A program made the position numbers and the translations under genes. Positions 5,983 through 60,565 of a DNA stretch of 64,000 nucleotides are shown here, in pieces (position 1 is the first letter of the stretch; each line of letters begins with the position of its first letter). Source of the DNA: Plasmodiophora brassicae (lineage: Eukaryota); the NCBI GenBank assembly GCA_036867785.1, contig CP145416.1, forward strand, positions 248,001 to 312,000, in the 5' to 3' direction. The notes under the pieces are model-generated. The model was given only the letters and a program-made list of their open reading frames with translations, did no database searches and was not told where the DNA came from.

Positions 5983-6108
5983 TGTCGAACAACGTATCCA
6001 CTACGACCAGCAGCACATGCCTGCAGCACGTGAACGCCGTCACGCACTCCGCGACTCCGTGCCCGCCGGCGTTGGCAACCGTTACACCGTCGGCGACTAC
6101 GTCGCCAC

Positions 6109-6997
6109 TATAGCTCTGTATTTTTTTTTATTTGTATTATTCACCTGCTATATAATACACATATAATACACGGTCTACGAAATATTATACAGCGATAAAA
6201 TACACCCTGTGCCTATATATAGTGCCGACCACTGGGCAAGGGCCGCCAAGGCTGTGCAGTGTGCACGCTGTGGCTCGCTGACCTGCGGGATGCTGCCTGC
6301 GGGCTGCGCGCAGCCGCCACGGCCTCATTGCCAGCAAGCCTGCGTGCCTACGGGTTGTCGCCTGCCTCGATAACCATCTATCTACGCTGGCGTCGCTACT
6401 GGTGAAGATCCACAACCTCGTTACTAATGCCGCCGGTGGTGAGCGAAACCATAAGGCAGCGAAGCGGGTCCATTCGGCAACACGAGCCAGCTTGCAAGGG
6501 GCGTCTGTGATGAAGCAGACAGCTGTTGCATTCAATGCAAAGCAGCTGTTGAAAGAAATCAGTATGACGCGTTCCGATGACGCGTTTGTACAGAGGCTGT
6601 CCGCCTGTGGATCAGGGTCATTGTATTCGCAACGCGCTGCAGCAGACGAAGAAGCTCTCAATCTTGTTTTTGAGGACGAGGACGAGGATGAGGAGCTTGT
6701 CGGTCTCTCTGTCGAAAGCGTCATCGATCCTGCCACCGATATTGGGCTGGATAGCATCATCGCCCTTGATGCTGCGGAAGACATCGAAGCTGTTCGAGCC
6801 GATGACACCTTGATCAGAACGCGCGAGATAATTGCCCTGAGCGTCTGAGGCCCTGATCCATCTCGGAATGAATACAAACTTCTTTGAATGCATTTCCAAT
6901 AGGCTGTATTAAATACCTGTATTATCCACCAGTATTATACAGGTATTATACACTTTTTGTATTATACAGGACCTCGGGTGTATTATACAGAGCCATA
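6109..6997 (+). mobile_element. Non-autonomous hAT element with a transposase C-terminal remnant
   Basis: 8-bp TSD GTCGCCAC (6101-6108, 6998-7005). TIR TATAGCTCTGTA / TACAGAGCCATA. ORF 6402-6848 NAAGGERNHKAAKRVHSATRASL resembles the hAT dimerisation motif. Confidence 0.85.
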
Positions 6998-7064
6998 GTC
7001 GCCACTGTAACGTCCGCCGCACACGCCGTACGTAATACATCCACTCCATTTATTGTCTTTCTCA

Positions 7065-7078
7065 GATTAACAGTCGTA
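7065..7078 (+). promoter_or_regulatory. Copia primer-binding site GATTAACAGTCGTA (anti tRNA-Asn anticodon arm)
   Basis: Lies immediately 3' of the LTR CA. Identical 14-mer at 15340-15353 and 24652-24665. Reverse complement TACGA-CTGTTAA-TC. Confidence 0.8.
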
Positions 7079-7107
7079 TAGGCGCAGGCGCTGAGCCTCT
7101 ACTCGCC

Positions 7108-9815
7108 ATGGCCGAGCGCCAGGCGACGCCTAACACGGATGACGACCCGCTGCGTCATCTGTCGCTCGAGGAGATCGACACCCGAATTGCCGAAGCGGAG
7201 GCAACGATCGCCAGGCAGGAGAAGATCGACCGTCTCCGTGTCCTGCAGCAGCAGCTGGCGCGTCCGACCAGCTGTCCATCGACCCCGGCCATGCCGATCA
7301 TCGCCGAGGCGCACAGCCGAAGCGACGCAGGCCGACTGCCCATGCCCAAGTTCGACGGTACTCCCGACTCGTTCACGTCCTGGGTTCAGACAGCTGCACT
7401 CTGGTTTCGCAATCGTGGGTACGCGGACGTCATCGGGATCAACGAAGATGGCTCGCCGACTGCGACAACCGGTACGGCACACGACCCAGCTCTCGAGGCA
7501 GCCAGCCGCGCGCGAGATTCTACTCGTCCACATGCTGGACCACAAGATCGCGTCCGCGTTGTCTTTGTTTCAGGCAGGCTCGGCTGCCAAGTGCTGGCGC
7601 GTGCTGTTCCAGGCGTACAGCCCGTCGTCGCTGGCATCGGTCGTGCGCGCCGTCCGCGACCTCGTCACGGTCCAGCACATGCCCGGCGAGTCGGTCGCCA
7701 CGTACGCCGCCCGAGTTCAAGCAGCGGCCCATCGCGTCCGGTCGACGGTACCGACCGAGATGCTGTCCCTCACCGACGCATTGGTCGCCGTGCTCATCTT
7801 GGCCAACGCATCATCCGATCTCGACGCCGTCGTCGCTGGCCTGCACAATCGTGCTCTGGACACGCTGCCCAGTGTCTCCGAGGTCGTCGGGTCGTTGACA
7901 AGCGAGGAGATCAGGGTCCAAGACGTGCGGGACCGACACGACGCGTTCCAAACGGCCAACCGCTCCAGTTGCGCCACATCGACGCGTCCCCGTGGACCAC
8001 GACGCAACGAGTCCTGCGTCTTCCATCCCGGATCCAAGCACACTAACGGCGAATGCACGCTGCAACGACACATCTGGTACCGCGACAGCAACGCGAAAAC
8101 CAATACATCCTCACCAACGTCCAACGAGTATCCAACGTCTGGCGCTCATCCGGTCGATCCGGCGCCCGAGCCGATGCGTGCTTTGTCGGCACGCCACGCC
8201 ATCGACGTGTACGCGAACTCAGTAGGCCTACTGGACTCAGCGTGTTCCACGACGATGACGCCCCTGCGCCGACATCTCACCTGCTATCGCCAAGGCACCG
8301 GACCGGAAGTTGAGCTAGCCGATCTGTCGCGTACGACCACTTCCGGTCGAGGCGTGACGTCATTCGGCATGGATGTCCAGGCGACGAGTATCGATTCGCT
8401 GCACGTTCCCCGACTTGGCCAAGCGCTAGTATCAGTTGGCCAGCTCACCAGATCAGGTCACAAGATCGTGTTCGACGGCGATACCGCGAAGATCTACTCG
8501 GGGGCCAACTGGACGGCGCCCGTCGGCCAGCCAGTGGCCGTCAGTCAACGAGGACACGATAACCTGTACCGGATTCCATTATCCGCTCCAACCTCCGCGC
8601 CCGGCACACTTCATTCCGCCCGAGTCTGCTCCTTGATCGCATCCAGCGTCTCATGCCGCGTCGCTAAGGTCACCGCCGCAGCTCCAGCTGTCTGGCACGC
8701 TCGAACCGGCCACCTGGGTTACGGCAACCTGCGCATCCTGCACAAACGTTGTCGTGGCATGAAGTTCGACGGGCCAATCCCGAGGCCGCAAGATCGATGT
8801 CCATGCGCTGCATGTTTACTCGCCAAGGGCAAACGGTCATCATTCCCTCCCAGTACGTCGCGCGCGCGTCGTGTTGGCGATCTCGTCCATAGCGATCTGT
8901 CCGGACGGTGGCCTGTCGTCGGTGTCGGCGGCTTTGAGTACTACCAGACCATGCTTGACGATTCCTCTCGGTACCTGTCCGTCTATCTGCTACGTCGCAA
9001 ATCGGAGGCGCTCGACGTCATCACGCACTATGACGCGCGTCTTCGCAACCAGGAAGGACGTGGTATCCGGACGTTCCAGACTGACGGTGGCGGCGAGTAC
9101 AACTCCAAGGCGTGCGTCCTGTTCTACAACGAGTCCGGCATCCTGCACCGCAAATCTGTCCCGTACACGCCCGAGCAGAACGGCCGCGCTGAAAGCGTCA
9201 ACCACACGCTCTGCGGTATCGAAAGCTCAATCCGGTGCCACCCTAGCATGCCTGACTCCACGTGGCCCTGGTCGCTGTCCTACCCTGCGATACTGTACAA
9301 CATCCACCCGAGATCAGTCCTTCCCGGGCGTCGCACATCGTTCGAGGCTGCTCGTCGCGCCCTACCTAACATCTCGGCCCTTCGTGTCTACGGTTGCGAT
9401 GCCTATGCCATGCGACCACATCCAGCCACGAAGAAGCCGAGCAAGTTGGAGCCTCGTCGTGTTCGCGCTGTGTTCATCGGTTTCACGCCCGGCATGAAGG
9501 CTTGGCGGTTCTACGACGTGGACCGGGAAGACACGTTCGAGAGCACGACTGCCGAGTTCCTGGAGACCTCGTTCACGTTCGGCTTTGGAAGATCCAGCCC
9601 TGCTAGTTCATCATCAGCGCCACCGTCCAGTCCCGAGTCGAGCTCTGCGCCGAACGTTGACACGATCGTCCCGACGCCCGTCTCTTCCGACGCCGTCATG
9701 GCACCTCTACCATCGACGTCAGCATCCTCTCTCGCAGCATCCCCTCCCGAGCCTCCGTCACCTGCCGCTGCGTCATCGCCTTCCGAGATCGTCCGACCGT
9801 CGCGCTCACCGTCTC
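7108..9815 (+). pseudogene. Copia gag-protease-integrase (one frameshift near 7500)
   Basis: PKFDG gag motif, LLDSACSTTM protease, WHARTGH pre-integrase, VHSDL / TDGGGEY / PEQNGRAE integrase core. Confidence 0.9.
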
Positions 9816-9998
9816 TGTCACGACTGAGTCGTGTTGGCGACTCAGCCGGCACCAAATTGGGCTCCTTCGTAGCGCACTGGGTACAATAAACGTCCACGGC
9901 GCGGACCGACCTCAGTCGGTCAATCCGTGTGGTTGACTCATCGTGTTCGGTCGTCACATTTTGACCGACTAACCTTCTGTCGTCGTGTTGTCTCGACT

Positions 9999-10198
9999 CG
10001 TATCGTATTGTGCCGTATCGTATCGTATTGTGCCGTATCGTATCGTATTGTGCCGTATCGTATCGTATTGTGCCGTATCGAATCGTATTGTGCCGTATCG
10101 TATCGTATTGTGCCGTATCGTATCGTATTGTGCCGTATCCTTATCGTATTGTGCCGTATCGTATCGTATTGTGCCGTATCGTACCGTGCCGTACCGTT
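9999..10198 (+). repeat. 20-bp tandem repeat (CGTATCGTATCGTATTGTGC)n in the element 5' leader
   Basis: About 9 visible units. About 5 units in copy B at 29298-29415. Confidence 0.95.
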
Positions 10199-10224
10199 TC
10201 TATCGTTCGTATTGTATTGCATTC

Positions 10225-12771
10225 ATGGCAGGAGGCGATGGGTCGATTCCGTCATGGGCGGACGACGTCCCATCGTCCGCGAATCCGGATGTTGCGGGTG
10301 TGTCGGATTTTGCTCTCGGTTCCCTGTCGCAGCTGCACTTCGCGCGGGGTGTTCTGCCACTGGCGAATCATCTCCCTGCACGACCGCTCACCCCGCCTTC
10401 GCTCACTAGTACCGCTGCCGATTGGCCCGACGACTCTCTGTCCTCTTCGGACCCTCACTCCCCGCCTGCCTTATCGTCCCTACACGTTTCTGCCGCCTCG
10501 ACGTCTCTGCAGGACCCCGGCGGCGCGCCTCGGCATGACCCTGTCTCCTCGACGTCGCAGCATATTGGCGCTTCGTCCGTTGGGGCTCGGGTGCCGGCGC
10601 CACGGGTGTCTCCGGGCCCACCCTTAACGTCTATTGTTGTCCAGTCACAAGACATTCCGCGTTTTTCGGGAAGCGATGGTCTGTCGACGACGCGTTGGTT
10701 GACTGCGTTCTCTCGGATCACCCAGACGTCGTTAACGTCTACAAGTCCTCTATCCGGCGATGTGCAATGTGTCTTAACGACAGCCTTGCAAGGTCAGGCG
10801 CTTGAGACTTACCTCGACTTGCCTGCGGACGCGTCTATGGCGGACGTAGCGTCCGTCCTGCTCCATGACTTCCCGGGACCTTCGTTCAAGCAGGTTGAAG
10901 CGAAGTTTGACAACCTGAAGCAGACTGCAGGTGTCGCTCACCACGCACTGGCATTCCAACGCTTGTACAAGCACCTTCAACGACTTGACCCATTGTACAG
11001 ACTCAATCCGGCCCGCTTGGCGGAAAAGTTCCGCCTCTCGTTGAACCCTGCGCTCTCAGAAGCGCTGTTCTTCTACAACTTCAGAGACTACGACAAAGTT
11101 CTCGAGATGGCGGTTCATCTTGAGTCGAAATACCCAATCGCCGCCATCAACGCTGGCGGTGATGCAAGGGCACAACCCCTGGCTTGCCACTATTGTCGCG
11201 AAGTTGGGCATTTTATTGCGTCCTGCCCGAAGAGGCCACCGTGCCCGCACTGTCATAAGGTTGGCCACCGCTCATCGCTGTGTCCCGAGCGGTCCGGCAA
11301 CCCTCTCCACGTCACTGATCTGTTCCTTATGACGTCTCCCTCAATACCGCATCTATTGGTATCGGTACGCCTCGTTATCGGCTCACGCCGTGTCAACACT
11401 ATCGCCCTGTTAGACTGTGGTGCGACTTCCAACTTCATCGACTGGTCGTTCTGTCGTCACCATGAAATACCGGTTCGCTCTAAAGCGCGTACCATTCCTG
11501 TTCGCGTCATCGACGGGCGACACCTGTCTCCAGTAACTCAGGAAACCGTCCCGCTACGTGCTACCGTCGACGGATGTTTCGACAGCGATGTCGTCCTGAA
11601 CATGATCCACTCGCCTCAACACCCTGTCATTCTTGGGCTGCCTTGGTTGGCGGATACAAACCCAGATATCGATTGGCGTCAGCGCCGCCTACAGCGCCGC
11701 GGAGATACCCTCGTGGGGATGTCACGCCGTACAGGAGACGTCCATGAGTCTGGGTCCTTCGTCTCTTCGGCGGGACCATTTGCTAAGCGCGGGGATAGTC
11801 TCTCAGCTGGGGTCTCACCTCCTGCACGAAGCGTTCCTGCGCCTGCGTGTGCCATCCCTTCAGCTGAATCACTTGAAACGCTGCCGCTTACATCCGTGTT
11901 TGTCGACGGCAAGCTGGCTTCCGTAGCTAACGACGACCACCCGGAGTGCCACATTGCCATTGCTGCGATCGACGACAGGCCGAGCCCTTCCGCTTTCGAT
12001 TATGGTAGCATCCCGGGGGTCGCCGCCTTCAATGATACTGTTGCCCCCAGCCGCACCGATCTCTTATCATTGCCCCGTTCAGGCTCCGAGTCCACGCCCC
12101 TTATGTCCTCCTTCCGGAACTGGGGCCCCGTTCGACGAGGGGTGAGACGGCCTCTCCCGCCGCCCCCGCCGCCTCCCTCCAATGATGGCTTCCGAGACGG
12201 CCACAGCCTCAATCTTCTGATGTTCGCAACCTTTGTCGCCCTGACCTGGATCCTAGTTGGGTGGCCGTATTTTCCAATAGCACAGCTGTGTACGAGCGCC
12301 TCTGCGGAGCCCCCGCCCTTGAATGCGCCCGCCGAGTCCTTCTTTGAACCTTTTGCTACGCTAGAGGATGACCAGGTCTCATCAACCTTGATCGCGTTTC
12401 TCAACCCCGATCTCATGTTCCTGGACGCCGCCGCACGTGCGTTTGCCCACAAGCTACATCGACGACAGATTCGTTCACTCCAATTCCTTAGCGAAGTTGA
12501 TTTCGTTCATTGGACACCTGACGCCCTGACTCGTCGACTGGAGTACAGACTGTCGCCTAATGATGAAGCAGTTCTTGCTAGGCCTCACCAAATGCTTCCA
12601 ACCAGACAAGCCCGCAGCCCGTTCCCGGTGCGGCTAAAAGGGGACTATTATGTCACGACTGAGTCGTGTTGGCGACTCAGCCGGCACCAAATTGGGCTCC
12701 TTCGTAGCGCACTGGGTACAATAAACGTCCACGGCGCGGACCGACCTCAGTCGGTCAATCCGTGTGGTTGA
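10225..12771 (+). CDS. Gag-protease fusion with hydrophobic segment and RNase H remnant (about 848 aa)
   Basis: Two CCHC knuckles, ALLDCGATSNF protease, ILGLPWL, hydrophobic LLMFATFVALTWILVGW, then HKLHRRQIR...PDALTRR. Uninterrupted ORF ending inside the 3' LTR. Confidence 0.85.
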   Translation: MAGGDGSIPSWADDVPSSANPDVAGVSDFALGSLSQLHFARGVLPLANHLPARPLTPPSLTSTAADWPDDSLSSSDPHSPPALSSLHVSAASTSLQDPGGAPRHDPVSSTSQHIGASSVGARVPAPRVSPGPPLTSIVVQSQDIPRFSGSDGLSTTRWLTAFSRITQTSLTSTSPLSGDVQCVLTTALQGQALETYLDLPADASMADVASVLLHDFPGPSFKQVEAKFDNLKQTAGVAHHALAFQRLYKHLQRLDPLYRLNPARLAEKFRLSLNPALSEALFFYNFRDYDKVLEMAVHLESKYPIAAINAGGDARAQPLACHYCREVGHFIASCPKRPPCPHCHKVGHRSSLCPERSGNPLHVTDLFLMTSPSIPHLLVSVRLVIGSRRVNTIALLDCGATSNFIDWSFCRHHEIPVRSKARTIPVRVIDGRHLSPVTQETVPLRATVDGCFDSDVVLNMIHSPQHPVILGLPWLADTNPDIDWRQRRLQRRGDTLVGMSRRTGDVHESGSFVSSAGPFAKRGDSLSAGVSPPARSVPAPACAIPSAESLETLPLTSVFVDGKLASVANDDHPECHIAIAAIDDRPSPSAFDYGSIPGVAAFNDTVAPSRTDLLSLPRSGSESTPLMSSFRNWGPVRRGVRRPLPPPPPPPSNDGFRDGHSLNLLMFATFVALTWILVGWPYFPIAQLCTSASAEPPPLNAPAESFFEPFATLEDDQVSSTLIAFLNPDLMFLDAAARAFAHKLHRRQIRSLQFLSEVDFVHWTPDALTRRLEYRLSPNDEAVLARPHQMLPTRQARSPFPVRLKGDYYVTTESCWRLSRHQIGLLRSALGTINVHGADRPQSVNPCG

Positions 12772-12793
12772 CTCATCGTGTTCGGTCGTCACA

Positions 12794-15050
12794 GTCTCCT
12801 GATGACGTATCCACCGACGAAGATGATGATGACGCTGAAGATGATCCCGACTACGAAGGTTCGGCGTCCAGCAACGACTCTCCCAACGAAGCTGCCGACC
12901 CCGACGTCCACGACAATTCCGATGCTGCTGATATCGTTGACCACAATGTCATCGACGTGCCACGCCCTCGCCGATCGAATCGTCGTCGTCAACCGCCTGG
13001 TGAATGGTGGAAGGCGCCGGAGGCGGCCAATCGTTCGTCGACACGGTGGTCCTCGACGGTCGACGCCTGGTTCCAGAATCCGACCCTAACGTTCCCGACA
13101 CAGCGCCCTCCTCGTCGCTCCCGCCGACTGATCCGGCATTGGCAGCAGGTTGAGGAGCGCCGTCTGATCGATCAGGCCATCAGGTCCAACCGTCCGACAT
13201 GTCGCGGCGCCGCTGCCAAGACATGTCGAGCCAAGGTATCCGCCCCGATCGACCCAGCCCGTCTACCACGACCCGACCTGTCGAAGCTGAAAGCGACCGA
13301 CATTCCCGTACCCAACTCAATGGCCGATGCCCTCTCATCACCTTTCGCTGGCCACTGGTGAGACGCCGCCGTCACCCAGATGGCAACACTGGACGCCAAG
13401 GACACGTTCGGCCCGCTAATCGACCTGCCGAAAAGTAAGATCGCTGTTGGCGCCAAGTGGGTGTTCCGAGTGAAGTCCTCGCTCAGTGGCAACGGTGGCA
13501 TCCGCAAGTTCACCGCCCGACTCTGTGCTCAGGGCTTCCGACAACGCCCCGGCATCGACTTCGACGATACGTTCGCGCCGACCGCCCGTGCCACTGCGTT
13601 CCTCGTTATCCTAGCGCTCGCGGCGCAGCACGGCCTGCATCTTCGCCAGGTCGACTGGGTGGCCGCATACCTGAACGCCGACATGCTCCATGATGTTTAC
13701 ATTCGTCAGCCGGATGGCTTCACCGATCATCACGTCCCGTACCGAGTTCGTCAACTGCAAAAGGCCCTTTATGGAACGAAACAAGGCGCCGAACGTTGGT
13801 ACAAGACGCTTCGGGAGATGCTGTTATCACTCGGATTCGAATCGATCATCGCGGACCCCTGCGTCTTCCGGTACGATCGCGATGGAAAGTTCATGATCAT
13901 GTCGGTGCACACCGACGACGGTCTGCTGGCGTACAATGACGTCCCGTTCGCGGAATCCGTTCTCGAGAAGCTCTCCACGATGGCCGAGATCACCGATCAA
14001 GGTGAACCGTCGACCCTGCTTGGCATGCGCATCCGACGCGAACCTGGCACCGGCGCCATCACCCTTGACCAAGCCGAGTACATCGAGAAGGTGTTGAGCG
14101 ACTTCAACATGTCGCATTGTCATCCGGTCGACACGCCGCACCAGCCTGGCGTTCACCTATCAACGACAATGAGTCCACAAAGCGACCTCGACCGCGACGA
14201 AATGGCGACCAAGCCGTACCTCAAACTTATTGGCTGCCTGACATGGCTCGCCCATCGATGCCGTCCCGACATCGCGTACATAACGAATGTACTGGCCCAA
14301 TTCTCCTCGAATCCCGGCATCCAGCATTGGCGTGCGGGGCAACGCGTTCTTGAGTACCTCGCCGGCACCATGACGCACGGCATCCGATACGAACGCCAGC
14401 CCGAAGATCGTCTGATCGCATACGCCGACGCTGATTGGGCATCCGACCCTGACACGCGACGGTCGCGCTCCGGCCACATCATCCTGCTGGCTGGCGGCCC
14501 CGTGCACTGGCAGTCACGTCGCCAAGACCTGGGCGCAGTCAAAGTTAGCTTATCGTCCACACATGCAGAGATCAAGTCGCTGTGTGCTGTTACCCGCCAG
14601 CTGGCCTGGATCCGGTTATTCCTGACCGAAATCGGCTTCGCACGCTCCAGTCCGACGATCGTATACGAGGACAATCAAGGCGCGAAGGCCTGGTCTGGCT
14701 ATCGTCGGATGGATGATCGCACGAAGGACATCGAGGTGCAGTTTCACTACACCCGGGAGGCCGTCGAGGCCAGTTTGATTGTCGTCCACAAGTGCCCGTC
14801 CGCCGAGATGGCTGCAGACTACCTCACGAAGCCCGCTCTCAGCACCTCGTATCATGCGAACCTGCTCCTGGCCGGCATCCTCGACACAAGTCCCAGGCCG
14901 TGTGCTGCTGGAGGGGGCGTGTCGAACAACGTATCCACTACGACCAGCAGCACATGCCTGCAGCACGTGAACGCCGTCACGCACTCCGCGACTCCGTGCC
15001 CGCCGGCGTTGGCAACCGTTACACCGTCGGCGACTACGTCGCCACTGTAA
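12794..15050 (+). pseudogene. Copia reverse transcriptase and RNase H (in-frame TGA at 13359-13361)
   Basis: ARLCAQGF, LQKALYGTKQ, HTDD, YADADWA, YEDNQ, MAADYLTK. Confidence 0.93.
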
Positions 15051-16163
15051 CGTCCGCCGCACACGCCGTACGTAATACATCCACTTCATTATTGTCTTTC
15101 TCATCTACCAATCGTCGTACATGATTTGAGCTTTGATTTCCTCGGTCATGTTGAGGTTTGTCAAACAACATGTCCAGTACAACCAGCAGCACATGCCTGC
15201 AGCACGCCGTCACGCACTCCGAAACTCCGTGTTCGCCGTCAACCGTTACGTCGTCGGCGACTACGTCGCCACTACAACGGCCACCGTGCCGTTGCGCAAA
15301 CGCCGTACGTAATACACTCACTTCGTTATTGTCTTCACAGATTAACAGTCGTAGGCGCAGGCGTTTTACCCCTTCTCGTCCTGGCCGAGCGCCAGGCGAC
15401 GCCGACGCCGAACGCGGATGACGACCCGTTGAATCACCTGACGATCGACGAGATCGACATCTGCCTAGCCGAAGCGGAGGCAAAGGTCGCAAGGCAGGAG
15501 AAGATCGACCGTCTTCGCATCCTGCACAAGCAGCTGGCGCGCCCGACCAGCTGTCCACCGATCCCGTCCGTGCCGATGGTTGCCGAGGCGCACACCCGAA
15601 GCGACGCAGGTCGGCTACCACTGCCCAAGTTCGATGGGACGCCCGACTCGTTCACGTCCTGGATTCAGACCGCGGCCCTCTGGTTCCGCAACCGTGGATA
15701 CGCGGACGTCATCGGGATCAACGAAGACGGCTCGCCGACCGCGACAACCGGTACGACGGACGGTCAGCTCGGAGGCGGCCGCGCGCGAGATTCTACTCGT
15801 CCACATGCTGGATCACAAGATCGCGTCTGCGTTGTCCTTGTTTCAAGCAGGCTCGGGTGCCAAGTGTTGGCGCGTGCTGTTCCAGGCGTACAGCCCGTCG
15901 TCGCTGGCGTCGGTCGTGCGCGCCGTCCGCGACCTCGTCACGATCCAACACATGCCCGGCGAGTCAGTCGCCACTTACACCGCCAGAGCTCAAGCCGCAG
16001 CTCATCGAGTCCGGGCAACGGTACCGACCGAGATGCTGTCCCTCACCGACGCGCTGGTTGCCGTCCTCATTCTGGCAAACGCATCATCCGATCTGGACGC
16101 GGTCGTCGCCGGCCTGCACAACCGTGCACTGGACACGCTGCCCAGTGTCTCCGAGGTCGTTGC

Positions 16164-16319: not shown

Positions 16320-16700
16320 TTGCGTCACTGACGAGCGAAGACATTCGCATTCGCGATGTTCGCGACCGTCAAGAATCGTTCCAGACGGCCAACCGATCCA
16401 GCTGCAATACGTCGACACGTACCCGTGGACCTCGATGTCACAGTCAAGTCGCTGTCTTGGCGACTCAACCGGCACCTAATTGGGCTCCTCCGCAGCGCAC
16501 TACTACAATAAACGTCCACGGCGTTGGACCGACCTCAGTCGGTCAATCCGTGTGGTTGACACATCTTGCTCTGTCGTCACATTTTTACCGACTACCCTTC
16601 GGTCGTACGCGTATCGTCTCGTCTCGTCTCGGCCCGTATCGACTCATATCGTATTGCACCGCGTCCTAACAACTGTTCCGTCTAGTGTATCATCGCAGCT

Positions 16701-17808
16701 ATGGCGGGAGGTGATGGGTTGATTCCGGCGTTGTCGGACTCGCCATCGTCCGCGAATCCGGATGTTGCAGCTGCGGCGGATGTTGCTGGCGCTATCGAGC
16801 TGCGCGACCTGAAGGCGGAGATCCTCGACCTCTTAGCCCAGTTGAAATTCGCGCATGGCTCGCTGCCTAGGCCCAGCCCCCCCCCCCCCCCCCCCCGCAG
16901 CGCCAGCTGTCTCGTCTCCCGAAGTGCGCAACGACTCGTCGGATTCTCCGGTCACCAGTGCTGTGCCTTCCCTATTGCCTCTCCACGCTTCTGTGGCTTC
17001 GTCTCTGCCGAATTCTGTCGCCCCGTCGACGCTGCATCCCGTGTCCCCGCCGCCGCCGCCTATTGTTGTCCTGTCCCACGATATCCCGCGATTTTCGGGG
17101 GCGGACGGTCTGTCGACGATGCGTTGGTTGACCGCCTTCGCGCGGATCACCCAGACGCCGTTAACGTCTACCAGTCCGCTTTCCGACGCTGTGCAATGCA
17201 TCTTGACGACGGCCTTGAAAGGATACGCCTTGGAGACTTATCTTGACCTTTCCGAGGACGTGTCAATGGCGGACGTGGCATCCGCCCTGCTTCATGATTT
17301 TCCGGAGCCGTCGTTAAAGCGGGTCGAAGCTGATTTTGACAATTTGAAGCAGACTTCCAGTGTGGTTCACCACGCGCGGGAGTTCCAGCGCTTGTACAAG
17401 AAGGTTCAACAACTCGACCCCTTGTATAGGCTGAGTCCGTCCCGTTTGGCGGAAAAGTTCCGCTTGTCCTTGCACCCTGCACTTTCTGATGCCCTCTTCA
17501 TTTACAACTACACCGAGTACGACAAGATGTTCGAGATGGCGATCCATCTCGAACCGAAGTACCCGACCGCCGCTGTCAACGCTATCGAGGTCGGAGGGGC
17601 GCAACCTTTGGTCTGCCACTATTGTCGCGAGGCTGGACATTTCATTGCGTCCTGCCCCAAGCGACCTCCGTGCCAGCACTGTCACAAGGTTGGTCACCGC
17701 TCCGCGCTGTGCCCCGAGCGGCCTGCCGCTGCTGGTCCTCCGTCGCCCCCACCCAGCGCCAGCATCCCGCAGGCTGGTCCCCCGGGAAATGTGCCCGGGC
17801 GTCTGTGA
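16701..17808 (+). CDS. Gypsy Gag (apparent frameshift in the poly-C run near 16877-16896)
   Basis: MAGGDG start as in copies A and B, DIPRFSG, two CCHC knuckles. Confidence 0.85.
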
Positions 17809-17827
17809 ACGGGTTCCTCAGTCGCCC
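17784..17827 (+). promoter_or_regulatory. -1 ribosomal frameshift signal
   Basis: G GGA AAT heptamer in the gag frame, 6-nt spacer, GGGCG...CGCCC hairpin. Pol is in the -1 frame. Confidence 0.75.
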
Positions 17828-20800
17828 AGTAAACATTTCGTTTGGTTCCGAACCCGACTTTCTTCATGTTACGGATTTATTCTTTACGTCGGCTACATCT
17901 ATACCACATCTATTGGTTCCGGTCTGTCTCGCTATTGGCTCACGTCGCATCAGTACGCTCGCCTTGTTAGACTGTGGCGCGACGTCCAATTTTATCGACT
18001 GGTCGTTCTGTCGTCATCACGAAGTGCCTGTTCGCTCCAAATCGCGTGCAATTCCGGTTCGCGTCATTGACGGCCGTCATCTGGCCCCAATTACTCAGGA
18101 AACCGCCCCGCTACGAATCACCGTCGACGAATGTTTCGACAGTGACGTCGTCCTCAACATGATCCATTCGCCGCAGCATCCTGTCATCCTCGGCCTGCCG
18201 TGGTTGGCGGATACAAACCCTGACATCGATTGGCGGAGCCGCCGTCTCCAGCATCGCGGCCCTCGCCTCGCGGGGATCTCAATCCCGGCAGGAGACCTCC
18301 CTGCGTCTACGTATGCAGTTGATTCGGCGGCATCAGTCGAACCATTGCCGACTGCCTCAGCATCTGAGGTAGCCGAGGTGGAGGTAATTGCCCTCCCTGA
18401 GTTGGCTTCTGACGACGAGGACGACGACGATTACTCCGAGTTCGGGACCGTCCCGGCTGCGGGCGTCGATAGCTCTAGCGCTTCCGTCATCGCTCCCGAT
18501 TGCCTCTCGGAGGTCGCTGTCACTGATACGGTGGCCGCCGGTCACAGTGATCCGTCTGCTGCTGTTGTCGACAGCTCTAGCTCTCCCGCCCTCGCGCATG
18601 CCTGCCTCTCCGAGGTCGCTGCCACTGCTACTGTGGCAGCGTGCCACAACGACCCGTTATCATCGTTCCCCTCGGGCCCCGAGCCGTCGTGCGTCCGGCA
18701 CCGTGGACCCGTCCGTCGAGGGGCGGGACAACGCCTCTCGCCGCCTCGCCCCTCTGGCGGGCTTCGTGGTCGCCACATTATCAATCTTTTGATGACTGCA
18801 TCCTTGGTCGCCCTGGCCTGGGTCCTTGGGTGGACTTATCTTCCATTCACGCGGCTCTCTTCCGGTGCCTCTGCGGAGCCCCTGATCTCGAACGCCTCCG
18901 ACGAGTCCTTCTTTGCGCCCTTGGTCTCACCAGACGGTGACCCGGGGTCATCAACCTCGATTGCGTTTATCAGCGCTGAGCCGTTTCTGGATGCTATCGT
19001 TGACGACGCAGCTTGTTACCTTCTGCATTATACTTGGACCGAACTCGACTCGGACTCAGTCTCCGGGCCTGCGCTTCCTGACGCCTATCGTGAGTTCTCG
19101 GACGTGTTCGCCACTGGCAGCCCGGCGTGCCTGCCTCCTCACCGCGCTTCCGATTGCCCCATCGATCTTAAGCCCGGCAAGGAGCCACCATTTTGTCGGC
19201 TATATGGTCTCTCCCAACGAGAGCAGGTGGCCCTCAAGCAGTATCTGGAAGCCAATTTAAAGTCGAATTTCATTCGTCCTTCCCGTTCTTCGGCCGGTGC
19301 GCCGATTCTGTTTGTACGCAAGAAAGACGGCTCGCTGCGACTTTGTGTCGATTATCGCGGCCTCAATTCTGCCACGATCAAGAACCGGTATCCACTGCCT
19401 CTTATTGACCAACTTCTTGCCAACCTTAGTCGGGCCACGATCTTCACGAAAATCGACCTGCGCAGCGCGTATAATCAAATTCGTATCCGCGAAGGGGACG
19501 AGTGGAAGACGGCGTTTCGCACCCCGTATGGACTCTTCGAATATTTGGTTATGCCGTTTGGCCTCGCAAACGCACCGGCTTCGTTCCAGTCGTTCATGAA
19601 TGATATGTTCAAGGATTACCTCGACCAGTTCGTTGTCGTATATCTGGACGACATCCTTATTTTTTCTGCGAACGTCGCCGACCATGAACACCATGTGCGC
19701 CTCGTCCTGGAACGACTTCGGGCTAGCAGTCTTACCGCTAATATGGAGAAGTGCGTTTTCGGCGCCAAGGAGGTTGAGTTTCTCGGCTACCTCGTTTTTC
19801 GAGACGGACTGCGCCTCGACCCTGCCTGTATCGACACTATCCTGTCTTGGCAACCGCCACGAGATATCCATGGTCTCCAAGTATTCTTGGGATTCGCCAA
19901 TTTTTATCGCAAATTTATTCCTCACTTCGCGGAAATTGCTCTACCACTCACAAACCTGACGCGTGACGGTGTCGCCTTTATCTGGGATGCTGACGCTCAA
20001 GCTGCATTCGGCTCTCTGAAGGTTGCGTTCACATCGGCACCTGTCTTGGGCCATTTCGATCCTCATCAACCGTGTGATGTTGAGACCGACGCCTCAGACT
20101 TTGCCATCGCTATGGTCCTTTCGCAAAAGGGCGGCGCAGATGGGGAGTTGCACCCGATCGCCTACTTCTCGCGGAAGCTGATTGCTGCCGAGATTAGCTA
20201 TCCCATTTACGACAAGGAACTCCTGGCGGTTGTGGAAGCGTTCACTAAGTGGCGGCAGTTCCTCGACTCAGATCAGCACCAAACTGTCGTGCATAGCGAC
20301 CATCGTAACCTCGTCCACTTCATGTCTACCCACAAGTTGAACAGACGTCAGGTTCGCTGGTCTCAACTGCTTAGCGAATTCGATTTCGTGATTCATCATC
20401 GTCCGGGGCGACTTCATGGGAAGCCGGACGCCCTCACTCGTCGTCCGGAATACCAACCTTCGCCTGGCGACGAAGAAATTCTAGCAATGTCTCAACAGCT
20501 GCTTCCACCGCATCGCTTCTTCCGCCCGGACCCAGCTATTCTCTTCCTCCAGACCGGTACATCAGGCATCTCCCTTGTCGAACGTGTTCGTCGCGAACAA
20601 GCCGATGACCCCTTCGTCCAGAAGACGTTATTATCGCTGGACGGGCCTCGTGGACGACGTTTCCGCGTTGCCGATGGTCTCTTATACAACGGAACCGCTC
20701 TCGTCGTCGCTGGTGAGGCCTGCAAGCTGGAAGTTCTGCACAGCCTTCACGACAACGTTACCGCCGGTCATTTTGGGGTTCGCAAGACATTGCAGCTCGT

Positions 20801-22039
20801 CAAGCGCGAGTTCTGGTGGCCCAAGATGTCCTCGTTCATCAAGGGTTACGTGGCGACCTGTGACACGTGTCGCCGCGTCAAACCTCCTCGCCATCGACCA
20901 TCCGGCCTGCTACTTCCGCTACCAATTCCAACCGCTCTCTGGTCCTCCATCTCAATGGACTTTATCGTCAAGCTCCCCTCCTCCCGTGGCTATGACTTTG
21001 TACTGGTCGTGGTCGACCGTTATTCGAAGATGGCCCACTTTGTGGCGTGTCGAGAATCCATTTCCGCGGATCAGCTTGCCGATCTGTTTCTTCAGAACGT
21101 GTTCCGTCTGCATGGCCTGCCCGACGACATTGTCTCGGATCGCGGACCTCAGTTCGTATCGTTGTTCTGGAAGCACCTCCTATGCCGTCTCGGCGTTGAA
21201 CGCCATCTGTCATCATCCCGCCATCCCGAATCTGATGGCCAGACCGAGCGCGTCAACCAGATATTAGAGCAATACCTTCGCTGTTATGTGTGCTACCTGC
21301 AAGACGACTGGGAGCCATTATTGCCGCTGGCCGAATTCTCTTACAATAACGTCGACCATTCGTCCACTGGAATGTCTCCCTTCTTCGCGAACTACGGCTA
21401 CAACCCTCAGCTACGCGACCCTCGTCCTTGCAAACACGGTAGCTCCAATCCCTCTGCCGATGAACGCGTGGAGAACTTGACGGCCATTCGCCGTTACCTA
21501 CACCGCCAACTGCATCGTGCTGTCAGCACCATGAAACGAGCTGCGGATCGGAAACGCCGACCTCATCCCGACTTCAAGATCGGGGAGTCGGTCATGCTCC
21601 GTCGAGGGGCAATTGCGACTGGCCGGCCATGCGGTAAGCTGGATGTCCAAATGCTCGGCCCTTTCGAAGTTAGTCGCATCGTCAATCCGGTCGCCTACGA
21701 ACTCCTGCTCCCGGCATCCTTCCGCATCCACAACGTCTTCCACGCATCCCAACTGGAACCGGACGTCCCGAACGTGATACCCCATCGTGTGCAGCCTCCG
21801 CCACCCCGATTCTGCTCGACGACGACGACCAACCGCTGTTCATCGTGAAGGAGGTCCTGGACTCTCGATACCGTGCTGGTAAGCTGCAGTATTATATCGA
21901 CTGGGAAGGCTACCCTGCATCCGAGCGCACCTGGGAACCCGCCTCCAACTTGCAGGGCACCGGCGGATTCGATCGCCTGCTCGCGGCATTCCACGCTCGG
22001 TACCCAGACAAGCCCGGACCCCGTCTTCGACGCCCGTAA
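17784..22039 (+). CDS. Gypsy Pol (PR-RT-RH-IN-chromodomain; frameshift near 21805)
   Basis: LLDCGAT, YLDD, ETDAS, HHCC, SMDF / SDRG / DGQTERVN, GPF, chromodomain YYIDWEGY...TWEP in the shifted frame. Confidence 0.93.
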
Positions 22040-23178
22040 AAGGGGACTATTATGTCACGGTCGAGTCGCTGTCTTGGCGACTCAGCCGGCACCTAATTGG
22101 GCTCCTCCGCAGCGCACTACTACAATAAACGTCCACGGCGTTGGACCGACCTCAGTCGGTCAATCCGTGTGGTTGACACATCTTGCTCTGTCGTCACACT
22201 CGACGTAACGAGTCCTGCGTCTTTCATCCGGGATCGAAGCACACGAATGGCGAATGCAGCCTGCAGCGGCACATCTGGCATCGCGACATCAACAACAACA
22301 ACAACAGCAATACATCGTCACCAACGTCCCACGAGTATCCATCGTCTGGCGCTCTCCCGACAGATCCGGCATCCGAGCCAACGCGCGCATTGTCGGCACG
22401 CCACTCCATCGACGCGAGCGCGAGCTCAATGGGACTATTGGATTCGGCCTGTTTCACAACGATAACACCCCTGCGCCAGCATCTCAGCCGTTATCGACGC
22501 GTCCCTGGACCAGAAGTCGAACTAGCTGATTTGTCGCGAACGACTACGTCCGGTCGGGGCGTGATGTCATTCGGCAAGGATGCCCAGGCGATGAGTATCG
22601 ACTCACTGCACGTCCCACGACTTGGTCAAGCGCTTGTTTCAGTCGGACAACTCACCCGATCAGGCCACAAGATCGTATTCGACGGCGCCACTGCGACCAT
22701 CTACTCGAAGGACAGCCGGACGGCACCCACCGGGCAGCCAGTGGCGATCAGCACCCGTGGACAAGACAACCCCGGATCGCACTATCAGCTCCATCCACCG
22801 ACAACACGCAACCGACTGTACCAGCCTGTTCCCTGATCGTATCCGACATCGCCTGTCGCGCCGCAAAGGTCACCACTGCATCTCCCGATCTGTGGCACGC
22901 ACGAATGGGCCATCTCGGTTATGGCAATCTGAACATCCTGCGGAACCGCTGTCGTGGTATGAAACTTGACTGCCCCATTCCCAAGCGTTCGCACCGGTGC
23001 CCATGCGAAGCCTGCCTCCTCGTCAAAGGTAAGCGTTCCTCATTTCCTCCGAGTAAGTCGCGGCACTTCGTGTCGGCGATCTCGTGCACAGCGACTTATC
23101 CGGTCGGTGGCCCGTTGTCGGCATTGGCGGCTTCGAGTACTACCAGACGATGCTGGACGACTCCGCGCGCTACCTGAC

Positions 23179-24498: not shown

Positions 24499-26068
24499 TG
24501 TCGAACTCCATATCCAGCAGCACACTCGTGCAGCAGCGCCGCCCGCGATGATGTAACGTGCACCGCGTCTCACGTCTACGACGTTGCCCGTCACACCCAA
24601 TATCTTCGCTCTATATCCATCAATATATCTCACTCTGATTTCGTCGTTTCAGATTAACAGTCGTAACCGCGCTCTGGGCGTTTCGCTCGCGTCCAACGTC
24701 ATGGCCGATCGCGGCCGAACGGCGGAATCAGATGTCCAAGTTCTCGACGCGCAGCTCGCTGAGGCCGAGCGACAGGAGAAGATCGCGCGCATCGCATTCC
24801 TGCGACAGCAAACCGCATCGTACTCCTGCATCGCCACGACGCCGACGACGCAGTCTCGCCCAACCATTGTGGACGGCGTAGTGCGTCCAGGTACAGATCG
24901 CGTGCCTCCGCCTCGGTTCGACGGCAAGCACGAATCGTTTGCCGCTTGGGCGCCCGCCGCCGCGTCTTGGTTTACCAACCGTGGATTCGCGGGAATTGTC
25001 GGCATCGACCTGGACGGATCGCCGACTCTGAGTATCCCCGACAATGTGGACGCGGATCTGGAGGCAACTGCTCGGGAGATACTCTTGTTTCAGATGGTCG
25101 ACGAGACCGTTCTGATCGGCTACAACTTGCTGTACGCCGGTACATCGGCGCAATGCTGGCGCGCTCTCTTCCGCATGCTGCGACCTTGCACGTTTTCGTC
25201 TGTCATTCGTGCTTCTAAAGATTTGTTCAGTGTTCGACAGCAAGCCGGTGAATCGGTCGCCTTGTACGCGGCTCGTCTGCAAGCCGCTGCCCAACGTTTC
25301 CGTACAACAGTCCCGAACGACATGCTTCACATGACGGATTCCTTCCTGGCTGTCCTGATGGCTGGCAACGCTTCATCAGAATTGGACACGGCCGCATCCA
25401 ACCTGCACAGTCGTGGACTCGAACCGCGGCCTACTGTCACTGAGGTCCTACTGTCACTGAGGTCGTGTCCACGCTCACATCAGAAGAGCAGCGCATTCAA
25501 GAGGCTCACGCTGACCGGGAGATATCGTTCGCAACGGCGAACCGTGCAAGCGCCACCGCACACCCGATTAAGGCTCCCGAACGCGATGGACTGCGCGTCC
25601 TACATACGTCCTTTAGGAAGCTGCACACGAATGGCAACTGTTTCCTACAGCGCTCGTTGTGGCGGACGACATCGAATACATCGTCGCAACCTGATCAGTA
25701 CGTCCCGGTTCGCGCCATGTCTGCCCGTCACCCCGCCGTAGACAACAGTTCCGTCGGCCTGCTCGATTCTGGATGTTCCACCACAATGACGCCCCTGCGC
25801 GAGCATCTCGGCGCTTACCGACATGTCGCCGGACCGACGGTTGAACTTGCAGACCTGTCTCGTACGACCACTTCCGGACGTGGCGTGACGTCATTGGGCG
25901 CTGATCAGTCCCAGATGACGCCTATCGATTCGCTGCACGTCCCACGACTCGGCCAAGCGCTCGTCTCCGTTGGACAGCTCACCCGATCCGGGCACAAGAT
26001 CGTCTTCGATGGGCCCAACGCGACCATCTATTCCAAGGACAACTGGACGTCCCCTGTCGGGACCCCGC
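24499..26068 (+). mobile_element. Ty1/Copia copy 3 (diverged; 5' LTR, gag, PR; truncated)
   Basis: LTR 24499-24651, same PBS, ATG at 24701, LLDSGCSTTM. 17-bp tandem duplication 25431-25464 causes a frameshift. Confidence 0.9.
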
Positions 26069-26605: not shown

Positions 26606-29600
26606 TCACGACTGATGATTTCGACACACGAAGGTCAGTGTGAGCTCGAGCGTCAGGATCTCTTGCATGATCATCACGCTGCGGCTCATGCTGCCAGGCC
26701 GTGCGCCACCCTTCATTGTCTGCCGAAAAAGCACCAGAGTCTGTTGGTGGTTCTTGAGTTCAAGACTCTGGCACGCGAATGTGACGACAGAGCAAGATGT
26801 GTCAACCACACGGATTGACCGACTGAGGTCGGTCCGCGCCGTGGACGTTTATTGTACCTAGTGCGCTACGAAGGAGCCCAATTTGGTGCCGGCTGAGTCG
26901 CCAACACGACTCAGTCGTGACATAATAGTCCCCTTTTAGCCGCACCGGGAACGGGCTGCGGGCTTGTCTGGGTGGAAGCATTTGGTGAGGCCTAGCAAGA
27001 ACTGCTTCATCATTAGGCGACAGTCTGTACTCCAGTCGACGAGTCAGGGCGTCAGGTGTCCAATGAACGAAATCAACTTCGCTAAGGAATTGGAGTGAAC
27101 GAATCTGTCGTCGATGTAGCTTGTGGGCAAACGCACGTGCGGCGGCGTCCAGGAACATGAGATCGGGGTTGAGAAACGCGATCGAGGTTGATGAGGCCTG
27201 GTCATCCTCTAGCGTAGCAAAAGGTGCAAAGAAGGACTCGGCGGGCGCATTCAAGGGCGGGGGATCCGCAGAGGCGCTCGTACACAGCTGTGCTATTGGA
27301 AAATACGGCCACCCCACTAGGATCCAGGTCAGGGCGACAACGGTTGCGAACATCAGAAGATTGAGGCTGTGGCCGTCTCGGAAGCCATCATTGGAGGGAG
27401 GCGGCGGGGGCGGCGGGAGAGGCCGTCTCACCCCTCGTCGAACGGGGCCCCAGTTCCGGAAGGAGGACACAAGGGGCGTGGACTCGGAGCCATAATCGAA
27501 AGCGGAAGGGCTCGGCCTGTCGTCGATCGCAGCAATGGCAATGTGGCACTCCGGGTGGTCGTCGTTAGCTACGGAAGCCAGCTTGCCGTCGACAAACACG
27601 GATGTAAGCGGCAACGTTTCAAGTGATTCAGCTGAAGGGATGGCACACGCAGGCGCAGGAACGCTTCGTGCAGGAGGTGAGACCCCAGCTGAGAGACTAT
27701 CCCCGCGCTTAGCAAATGGTCCCGCCGAAGAGACGAAGGACCCAGACTCATGGACGTCTCCTGTACGGCGTGACATCCCCACGAGGGTATCTCCGCGGCG
27801 CTGTAGGCGGCGCTGACGCCAATCGATATCTGGGTTTGTATCCGCCAACCAAGGCAGCCCAAGAATGACAGGGTGTTGAGGCGAGTGGATCATGTTCAGG
27901 ACGACGTCGCTGTCGAAACATCCGTCGACGGTAGCACGTAGCGGGACGGTTTCCTGAGTTACTGGAGACAGGTGTCGCCCGTCGATGACGCGAACAGGAA
28001 TGGCACGCGATTTAGAGCGAACCGGTATTTCGTGGTGACGACAGAACGACCAGTCGATGAAGTTGGAAGTCGCACCACAGTCTAACAGGGCGAAAGTGTT
28101 GACACGGCGTGAGCCGATAACGAGGCATACCGATACCAACAGATGCGGTATTGAGGGAGACGTCATAAGGAACAGATCAGTGACGTGGAGAGGGTTGCCG
28201 GACCGCTCGGGACACAGCGATGAGCGGTGGCCAACCTTACGACAGTGCGGGCACGGTGGCCTCTTCGGGCAGGACGCAATAAAATGCCCAACTTCGCGAC
28301 AATAGTGGCAAGCCAGGGGTTGTGTCCTTGCATCACCGCCAGCGTTGATGGCGGCGATTGGGTATTTCGGCTCAAGATGAGCCGCCATCTCGAGAATTTT
28401 GTCGTAGTCTCTGAAGTTGTAGAAGAACAGCGCTTCGGAGAGCGCAGGGTTCAACGAGAGGCGGAACTTTTCCGCCAAGCGGGCCGGATTGAGTCTGTAC
28501 AATGGGTCAAGTCGTTGAAGGTCCTTGTACAAGCGTTGGAATGCCAGTGCGTGGTGAGCGACACCTGCAGTCTGCTTCAGGTTGTCAAACTTTGCTTCAA
28601 CCTGCTTGAACGAAGGGCCCGGGAAGTCATGGAGCAGGACGGACGCTACGTCCGCCATAGACGCGTCCGCAGGCAAGTCGAGGTAAGTCTCAAGGGCCTG
28701 ACCCTGCAAGGCTGTCGTTAAGACACATTGCACATCGCCGGATAGAGGACTTGTAGACGTTAACGACGTCTGGGTGATCCGAGAGAACGCAGTCAACCAG
28801 CGCGTCGTCGACAGACCATCGCTTCCCGAAAAACGCGGAATGTCTTGTGACTGGACAACAATAGACGTTAAGGGTGGGCCCGGAGACACCCGTGGCGCCG
28901 GCACTCGAGCCCCAACGGACGAAGCGCCAATATGCTGCGACGTCGAGGAGACGGGGTCATTCCGAGGCGCGCCGCCGGGGTCCTGCAGAGACGTCGAGGC
29001 GGCAGAAACGTGTTGGGACGATAAGGCAGGCGGGGAGTGACGGTCCGAAGAGGACCGAGAGTCGTCGGGCCAATCGGCAGCGGTACTATTGAGCGAAGGC
29101 GGGGTGAGCGGTCGTGCAGGGAGATGATTCGCCAGTGGCAGAACACCCCGCGCGAAGTGCAGCTGCGACAGGGGACCGAGAGCAAAATCCGACACACCCG
29201 CAACATCCGGATTCGCGGACGATGGGACGTCGTCCGCCCATGACGGAATCGACCCATCGCCTCCTGCCATGAATGCAATACAATACGAACGATAGAAACG
29301 GTACGGCACGGTACGATACGGCACAATACGATACGATACGGCACAATACGATTCGATACGGCACAATACGATACGATACGGCACAATACGATACGATACG
29401 GCACAATACGATACGAGTCGAGACAAGACGACGACAGAAGGTTAGTCGGTCAAAATGTGACGACAGAGCAAGATGTGTCAACCACACGGATTGACCGACT
29501 GAGGTCGGTCCGCGCCGTGGACGTTTATTGTACCCAGTGCGCTACGAAGGAGCCCAATTTGGTGCCGGCTGAGTCGCCAACACGACTCAGTCGTGACAGC

Positions 29601-37000: not shown

Positions 37001-38231
37001 GATGTCATCTGCAAGCAGAGTCTGATAACGGTGAAATAGCTGAACTGCGAAGGAGAATGCGGAAAGTCGCAGCGCCTCTGGTCGTGAACGATCGACGAAG
37101 AAAAGGCGCATCAACTGCGCGAGCCTCTCAAACCAAACAGGGTTTGAAGGATATATCTGGGCCATAATGGCATGAAGAAGAATCTCCAGGTTGTCCCTAT
37201 CCAACAGCCTATGCATCCTTTCCAGCATTGCAAAATAGGAGTCGGACTGAACATTGCACGTGCGCATGGCTGTCAAAGATTCGCGCACAGCGGTTTCGAC
37301 AGCGACAGAAGCATCGACATGCTCCGCAACTATCGACAAAATGTCAATGATGGCGTCCCATTCGACAGCGGTGATTTCTGTGCCGAATTTGCGGATCAGA
37401 CGACGCGTTGATGCGCTAATTTCGCCGATAATAGCGATATCGGCTCGAACCGACCGATCGGTAAGGACGATAAGGAGCGCATCGAGAACATCCAAAAATG
37501 GTAGCGCCAGACGATCCGGGTCAATGCGCTGCGATCCCCAAACGGCCATGCCAACGAAAAATATAGCACCGCGACGAACAGCCGGCGTGACTGCGGCCTG
37601 CGAGAGCTGTCGCATGAGAATGGCGCCACACCTGGCACAATGCCTGCCGCTGAGAATGGCGCGAAAAATCCGCCATGGTTCATGACTGTCAGACATGGCC
37701 GCCGCCTGACATAACGCAACGACGACACGTTCGACGGCGCCCTGTGTGATCATGTCCGCTTTGACGCAAACCTGTGTAGGAAGATCGCAGCAGTTAGCAG
37801 AGGGACGTACATGCGAATTGCACTGGCGGAGATGTCGAATAACATACGTCAATGAAACGGAGGGCAATATGCCCGTAGGCCGTACCCGGCAGGCAAGAGG
37901 CAACGGCATCGACTACCGGTTCGATATCGGCTTCGGTCATGCCATATCCTGTAACCAGGTTGATCAGGCAGCGCAGGATGGCATCAGGATCGGAGAGGTC
38001 TGGGGCGACGGCGATGATACGCGCAATAAGACTGGCAGTGGCGGCCGGTGAATCGATTAGGCGGCGACAGTCGTGCGTGGCGGCCACCAGGGCGCGCTGC
38101 CTGGTGACCAGGTCGACCTGGTCGGACTGCAGCGCACGCATGATAGCAGGATGTGTATCGGTGGGTGCAAGGTCGCCAGCAAGCACCCGCGCAAGAATGG
38201 CGGCGGGCGCGTCATCGCCACCGATTGCCAT
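34085..38231 (-). CDS. TSC2: Tuberin-like RapGAP-domain protein (multi-exon)
   Basis: N-terminal RGAIFFVGMAVWG. C-terminal RapGAP motifs MKFGVIYV, YSGGLDR, FHVATLMP, KKRHIGNDYVNIVY. Confidence 0.85.
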
Positions 38232-60309: not shown

Positions 60310-60565
60310 GACGCCTCGTCGACCCAGTGGCGAAAATTGCTGAAGTCTGCCGCCCCTTTTTTTCGTCGTTGGAGTGACGAACCGAACGCGCCCCCGTCTG
60401 GCGATACAACGCGGTTACAAGTTGTCCAGCACGTTGATGACAACGGGGACGACTGTATAGGAGCCGCGATGGAGCTAATACTCTACGTCTTCCTACACGG
60501 ATGATGGGTAGCGTACAATGAAGTCAACGATCGCATGCCGAAACGTCCAGCAACAGCTCGGTGTA

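Follow-up and report, generated by a model that had tools for sequence, protein, structure and literature searches.

Drosophila copia and yeast Ty5 (genus Hemivirus, Pseudoviridae) are primed from the anticodon stem-loop of tRNA-iMet. Their primer-binding sites (PBSs) start with two stem bases, which are followed by the bases opposite A38 and A37 and then, at bases 5-7, by the complement of the anticodon.

Internal regions of other tRNAs have also been described as primers of LTR retrotransposons. In plants, the Bianca lineage of Ty1/copia has a PBS for 1/2tRNA-Ile, and 1/2tRNA-Met is given for Osser, Bryco, and Gymco-II; in the passages of this survey that deal with primers, tRNA-Asn occurs only among the 3′-end primers, with 2% of the elements (Neumann 2019, PMC6317226). 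The PBS of the FunCo1 clade of the Pezizomycotina, ATTAAGAGTCT, is complementary to an internal region of tRNA-Lys, and the clade was not found in 245 Basidiomycota genomes (Donnart 2017, PMC5445492). The Tca2/gamma-type LTR families of Candida albicans have an internal PBS for tRNA-Arg(UCU) (PMC4139406). PBSs that complement an anticodon loop were reported for most fungal Helenus TRIMs and for several Copia families of Puccinia, and the primers named for the Helenus and Copia elements of rust fungi are tRNA-Tyr, tRNA-Ile, and “tRNA-Asn-GTT” (Kojima 2024, PMC10886601). The text of the latter paper is inconsistent, i.e. tRNA-Asp (Copia-6_PHord) is given in one paragraph and tRNA-Asn-GTT in another; the tRNA genes concerned have introns. 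In our literature search, which was carried out outside subscription journals and Repbase, this was the only source that names tRNA-Asn as an internal primer.

A conserved 14-mer behind the 5′ LTRs of three Copia copies

The 14-mer GATTAACAGTCGTA has exactly three exact matches in the window, i.e. the whole 64-kb stretch of DNA that was analysed, at positions 7065-7078, 15340-15353, and 24652-24665, all of them on the + strand. The chance expectation for the window is 0.15, three matches were obtained in none of 100 shuffles, and no additional sites with up to two mismatches were found on either strand of the whole window. All three sites belong to a nest of LTR retrotransposons that extends over 25 kb of GC-rich (~58%) eukaryotic DNA. 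The initial annotation had placed the 14-mer directly 3′ of the 5′ LTR in three diverged Copia copies, and this was confirmed for the sites starting at 7065, 15340, and 24652.

Copy 1 is a Ty1/copia (Pseudoviridae) element. Its gag-protease-integrase frame (7082-9889, + strand; gag ATG at 7109) contains the Pfam domains Retrotran_gag_2, Pol_BBD, gag_pre-integrs, rve, and SH3_retrovirus, and its reverse transcriptase/RNase H frame (13362-15050, + strand), which runs into the 3′ LTR, contains RVT_2 (E 3e-50). The elements were assigned to Ty1/copia because gag_2, Pol_BBD, gag_pre-integrs, rve, and SH3 are followed by RVT_2 downstream. In copy 1, the domains are arranged as gag - protease - integrase - reverse transcriptase (RVT_2) - RNase H, and the direct LTRs have TG...CA ends, the 3′ one being preceded by a polypurine tract.

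The 3′ LTR of copy 1 (14920-15103, + strand, 184 bp) starts with TGTCGAAC, ends with TTTCTCA, and has TG...CA termini. It is directly preceded by the polypurine tract, GGAGGGGGCG (14910-14919, + strand), and directly followed by unrelated sequence (TCTACC). Because unrelated sequence and not the motif follows this LTR, the 14-mer is internal and lies outside the LTR. The 5′ LTR is present in two parts, the first of which (5983-6112, + strand) is 99% identical to 14920-15049 over 130 nt, while the last (6998-7064, + strand), again ending with TTTCTCA, is 97% identical to positions 119-184 of the 3′ LTR over 67 nt. The 5′ LTR therefore ends at 7064, one base before the motif, which starts with the first internal base, and the 3′ LTR fixes this end independently of the motif. 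The earlier LTR boundary was thus upheld by the 3′ LTR and the split 5′ LTR, and the putative PBS of copy 1 (7065-7078, + strand), an exact copy of the motif, adjoins the LTR end at 7064.

An 885-bp insertion (6113-6997) splits the two parts of the 5′ LTR. Its terminal inverted repeats are imperfect (86% complementary; arms 6101-6121 and 6985-7005), GTATTATAC-like repeats are found in subterminal position, and about nine duplicated LTR bases (GTCGCCACT) flank it on either side; the insertion has the appearance of a non-autonomous DNA transposon. An LTR-bounded insertion of about 3 kb (9795-12793) breaks the integrase region of copy 1 and parts its two frames. The LTR-like ends of this insertion (9795-9958 and 12630-12793) are 65-66% identical to the LTR of the Gypsy family described below, and the final 24 residues of the interrupted frame are found again at 12650-12721. 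A 5-bp target-site duplication is absent at copy 1 (flanks AGATC vs TCTAC), for which recombination between copies in this heavily nested region could be the cause.

The 5′ LTR of copy 2 (15159-15339, + strand), which is 78% identical to LTR 1 over 189 alignment columns, is adjoined by a putative PBS with the exact motif (15340-15353, + strand). Copies 1 and 2 are arranged head to tail, with 55 bp between them (15104-15158). The putative 5′ LTR of copy 3 (24499-24651, + strand) starts with TGTCGAAC like LTRs 1 and 2 and ends with TTTCA, after which the putative PBS follows, again with the exact motif (24652-24665, + strand); at the level of BLAST, this LTR matches neither LTR 1 nor LTR 2, and its boundary was placed by alignment alone. 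No 3′ LTR of copies 2 and 3 is present within the window. Protein identities to copy 1 are 66-84% for copy 2 and 50-58% for copy 3, and copy 3 is, by sequence comparison, a distinct and more distant Copia family. All three copies contain nested insertions, and all three are decayed. The gag start of copy 2 is lost, with CTG at 15380-15385 in place of the ATG of copies 1 and 3 (7106-7111 in copy 1). Searches of viral contigs yielded no protein relatives of the reverse transcriptase-RNase H region; seven matches to a 16-mer made of LTR end and PBS were found there in phage-like coding sequence without LTR context and were taken as chance matches.

In every pair of the three copies, the 14-mer is identical at 14 of 14 positions, whereas the values for its 100-nt flanks range from 62/111 to 77/106 (55-73%) in pairwise global alignments. 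Selection on the 14-mer is suggested because it is fully retained in copies with protein identities of 50-84% and flank identities of 55-73%. The conservation ends exactly at motif base 14, the next bases being TAGG, GGCG, and ACCG in the three copies, and this end corresponds to position 27 of tRNA-Asn, i.e. to the stem boundary. The block lacks palindromic symmetry, and across the three copies no further conserved block is found downstream of it. A TGG-type PBS is absent downstream of the LTR in copies 1, 2, and 3, as had been claimed at the outset. Judged from these alignments, the 14-mer block is under constraint, at the place where a PBS sits.

The window contains additional elements and genes. 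A Gypsy family is found on the + strand; its LTRs (16418-16581 and 22035-22198) share 93% identity, and its pol domains lie in 17490-21848. A short inverted relative is present on the − strand (26778-29598), and its LTRs (26778-26922 and 29454-29598) are 99% identical. Both have no TGG site after the LTR. There is a sequence 4 nt behind the Gypsy LTR (TTTTGACCGACTAAC in the inverted copy) that is complementary to AGTCGGTCAA within the LTR, suggesting a Tf1-like self-priming. The short Gypsy-related insertions contain, just inward of their LTRs, tandem arrays of a 10/20-nt unit (CGTATCGTATTGTGCCGTAT-like; 9963-10220 and 29275-29444), whose orientations at the two places are opposite. To the right of the nest, host genes are present, all on the − strand, for a DUF3384/HEAT (tuberin-like) protein (36428-37912), a WD40 protein (59140-60414), and a SWIB-domain protein (60566-61627), and from 38 to 56 kb of the window the GC content is raised to 62-68%.

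The anticodon arm of tRNA-Asn

The complement of the 14-mer consists of the five-base 5′ strand of a stem, the loop CTGTTAA with the anticodon GTT, and two bases of the 3′ strand. In the initial annotation, it had been read as the anticodon arm of tRNA-Asn(GUU), and a 17-base arm, TACGACTGTTAATCGTA, had been predicted, which we used as a query against metagenome contigs. The 17-mer was found in at least 119 contigs. For 98 of the 119 matching contigs listed, ARAGORN predicted a tRNA-Asn(gtt) with the 17-mer as its anticodon arm, in agreement with the earlier reading; these 98 genes were picked by the searched pattern and show the arm in nature, not in the host. The 17-mer is a common natural anticodon arm of tRNA-Asn. 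Among the matches listed, the 101 tRNA calls over the 17-mer represent 77 distinct sequences, and the 98 Asn genes by themselves include many different ones. Two contigs (L090 and L111) carry eukaryote-type nuclear tRNA-Asn genes, i.e. without an encoded CCA and with a T-run directly after the gene. As a control, the 431 tRNAs called in the listed contigs were compared with the 14-base complement, and isotypes other than Asn reached at most 11/14 when six odd “Ile(aat)” calls were left aside, the 17-mer itself being present in at least three of these.

In 3 of the 119 contigs listed, the 17-mer is covered by odd 101-nt “Ile(aat)” genes (ARAGORN), and 18 have no tRNA call over it, two of them resembling the 101-nt form and another being truncated at the end of the locus. 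The 101-nt tRNA-like genes (L017, L038, and L084, also L053 and L067) have an Asn anticodon arm, then an insert of ~27 nt, and an encoded CCA; the ARAGORN call is Ile(aat) or none. They may represent tRNA-Asn with an intron or a long variable arm. One contig (L042, 3190-3359) contains the 17-mer twice, 153 bp apart, in a tandemly repeated AT-rich unit without a tRNA call, which may be due either to chance or to a tRNA-derived repeat.

ARAGORN found no tRNA genes within the window. For the tRNA-Asn of the host, we made use of the sequencing runs that hold the window, i.e. 20 runs in 9 studies, some labelled plant metagenome and none recorded as RNA. The contigs of four of these runs (three organisms) were compared with positions 500-640 of L111 at 80% likeness. 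All four runs contain one contig on positions 7-63 of the L111 tRNA, with 51 of 57 positions identical, no gaps, and six unplaced differences; one of the runs holds a second, plant-type piece. In one run, the host contig is exactly 74 nt long and has a depth of 697, as expected of a multicopy tRNA gene with differing flanks. Its loose ends, GTCTGA before and GGGCTCGGACG behind, form a 7-bp acceptor stem, and a T-run follows. These contigs indicate that the host has an intron-less tRNA-Asn-like gene of 74 nt.

The 3′ strand of the T-stem ends with GGG in the host vs ACC in L111, and it follows that at least two, probably three, of the six differences lie in the 5′ strand of the T-stem. For the other three to four, the D loop, the variable loop, and the anticodon stem are possible places. 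On this comparison, the host arm is likely to be identical, or nearly so, to the complement of the 14-mer; a compensated stem change in the host arm would still leave 12-13 Watson-Crick pairs plus G-U.

Proposed half-tRNA priming and its alternatives

We propose, with a probability of roughly 0.8, that the 14-mer is the PBS of a Ty1/copia lineage that is primed by a half-molecule of tRNA-Asn(GUU). The 14-mer in the genomic RNA would anneal to positions 27-40 of the cytoplasmic tRNA-Asn(GUU), and the duplex would comprise all five bases of the anticodon stem’s 5′ strand, the loop of seven bases that contains GUU, and two bases at the start of the 3′ strand. Because the 3′-OH would be at position 40, a cut of the tRNA between positions 40 and 41, within the anticodon stem, is required, and the primer would be a 5′ fragment of tRNA-Asn of ~40 nt, unlike the halves induced by stress, for which the cut is in the loop. 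Reverse transcriptase would extend this fragment across U5 and R, giving the minus-strand strong-stop DNA. Cleavage of tRNA-Asn and priming by the fragment are both inferred by analogy with copia and Ty5.

Priming by half a tRNA-Asn is favoured because, in each of the three copies, the site starts at the base that directly follows the LTR. As is characteristic of half-tRNA priming, the PBS adjoins the 5′ LTR and complements an internal region of the tRNA, not its CCA end. In tRNA-Asn, t6A is expected at position 37, and queuosine replaces G34 in some fungi. Both positions would be within the proposed duplex, a difficulty that is shared by the accepted iMet cases. The interpretation of the initial annotation was retained with respect to the place of the PBS, the LTR boundary, and the match to the Asn(GUU) arm. 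The novelty that it had implied was given up, because internal PBSs for tRNAs other than iMet are in print (PMC6317226, PMC4139406, PMC5445492, PMC10886601). Half-tRNA-Asn priming at this locus would be a case of a known principle, not a new mechanism.

A pairing of the site with tRNA-Asn is also compatible with a conserved role in host-side or element-side regulation, rather than or besides priming. PBS-directed binding of tRNA fragments and pre-tRNAs to the RNA of LTR elements has been described for mouse and Drosophila (PMC12853362, PMC13537249); the relevant passages of PMC13537249 mention Asn-GTT only as a pre-tRNA that is bound by Puf68. However, such mechanisms exploit an existing PBS and leave its retention by the element unexplained, and the element needs a primer, for which no other candidate is present. 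We therefore regard a regulatory role as improbable.

If the site bound the 3′ end of another host RNA, e.g. a small RNA, a tRNA-like transcript, or a fragment of another tRNA, the likeness to tRNA-Asn would be coincidental. The occurrence of the 17-mer as a tRNA-Asn arm in 98 of the 119 contigs listed argues against this, as does the maximum of 11/14 for isotypes other than Asn among the tRNAs of these contigs. In addition, the conservation ends exactly at the stem boundary at position 27, and a chance match of 14/14 to one of a few dozen arms in the exact register is very unlikely. Taken together, these values make another RNA a highly improbable partner.

The block might also represent a different cis signal, e.g. 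for packaging or dimerisation, an end-proximal site for the integrase, or a hairpin, with priming elsewhere. There is a precedent in the fungal GalEa Copia elements, in which a conserved hairpin site replaces the PBS at this place (PMC5445492). At the present locus, the block is not palindromic, no second conserved block comes after it, nothing else downstream resembles a PBS, and the match to tRNA-Asn would have to be due to chance, so that we give this explanation very little credence. Self-priming of the Tf1 type, in which the 5′ end of the element’s own transcript folds onto the site and is cut to become the primer, is reported for the Ty1/copia lineages TAR and Houba (PMC6317226) and has a possible parallel in the Gypsy family of the same window, where the complement of the post-LTR sequence is inside the LTR, but it was rejected for the Copia copies, because the longest exact complement of the 14-mer in the own LTR is 6 nt (four LTR/site pairs), that of a 30-nt extension is 7 nt at most, and neither complement is at a conserved place.

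Relation to known priming systems

Half-tRNA-Asn priming of these elements would extend the short list of LTR elements with a primer cut from a tRNA other than iMet by an autonomous-type Copia that is present in three diverged copies, and it would support the single published mention of tRNA-Asn(GUU) as an internal primer. PBS finders that use only complements of tRNA 3′ ends will report “no PBS” here, suggesting that libraries of anticodon arms should be included. The growing set of half-tRNA primers makes it possible to ask what is recognised by cleavage or selection, a question that the finding in the window alone does not answer. When the motif and its complement were searched as letter strings in full texts, they were found only in unrelated primers or genes.

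The PBS appears to be old in the Copia lineage, because copies with 50-58% protein identity already share the site. A more far-reaching reading is that Asn priming is ancestral and fixed in the whole Copia clade of the host lineage, and that primer switching is channelled; we regard this as tentative and rather doubtful. The tRNAs for iMet, Ile, Arg, Lys, and Asn share the loop side U36-(t6)A37-A38. In the passages on primers of the papers cited above, the internal primers are mostly iMet-CAU, Ile-AAU, Arg-UCU, Lys-CUU, and Asn-GUU, i.e. their anticodons end in U, and thus all of them read codons beginning with A. If switching is channelled, a PBS could move between such tRNAs by changes of only 2-3 bases opposite the anticodon plus stem bases, and the motifs of FunCo1 and of the window are an example of such a small shift. 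The cleavage or selection step might recognise the U36-A37-A38 loop class. Exceptions from the pattern are Tyr-GUA and, if it is not a misprint, “Asp” (PMC10886601).

Among the internally primed elements, those of Kojima are the ones for which tRNA-Asn is named, but the window copies are of the autonomous Copia type, and the host tRNA-Asn-like gene has no intron. The Tca2/gamma-type families of Candida resemble the window elements in the use of an internal region of a tRNA other than iMet, while the tRNA and the host group differ. The Bianca lineage has a half-molecule of a non-iMet tRNA, as is proposed here, but its host is a plant and the tRNA is tRNA-Ile. The FunCo1 site ATTAAGAGTCT overlaps the site in the window and equals it except opposite anticodon base 34 and in the stem portion, with the same register and loop context; FunCo1 is of the Lys(CUU) type, in contrast to Asn(GUU) in the window. 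With copia and Ty5, the window elements share the Ty1/copia architecture and a PBS that directly follows the LTR, lacks TGG, and is complementary to an anticodon arm. The register is also the one given for copia and Ty5 in the initial annotation, but PBS bases 5-7 (AAC) of the window elements complement the anticodon GUU (Asn) and not CAU (iMet). The window elements therefore fall outside Hemivirus in the strict sense of a tRNA-iMet primer, while their proposed mode of priming is that of copia and Ty5 with another tRNA.
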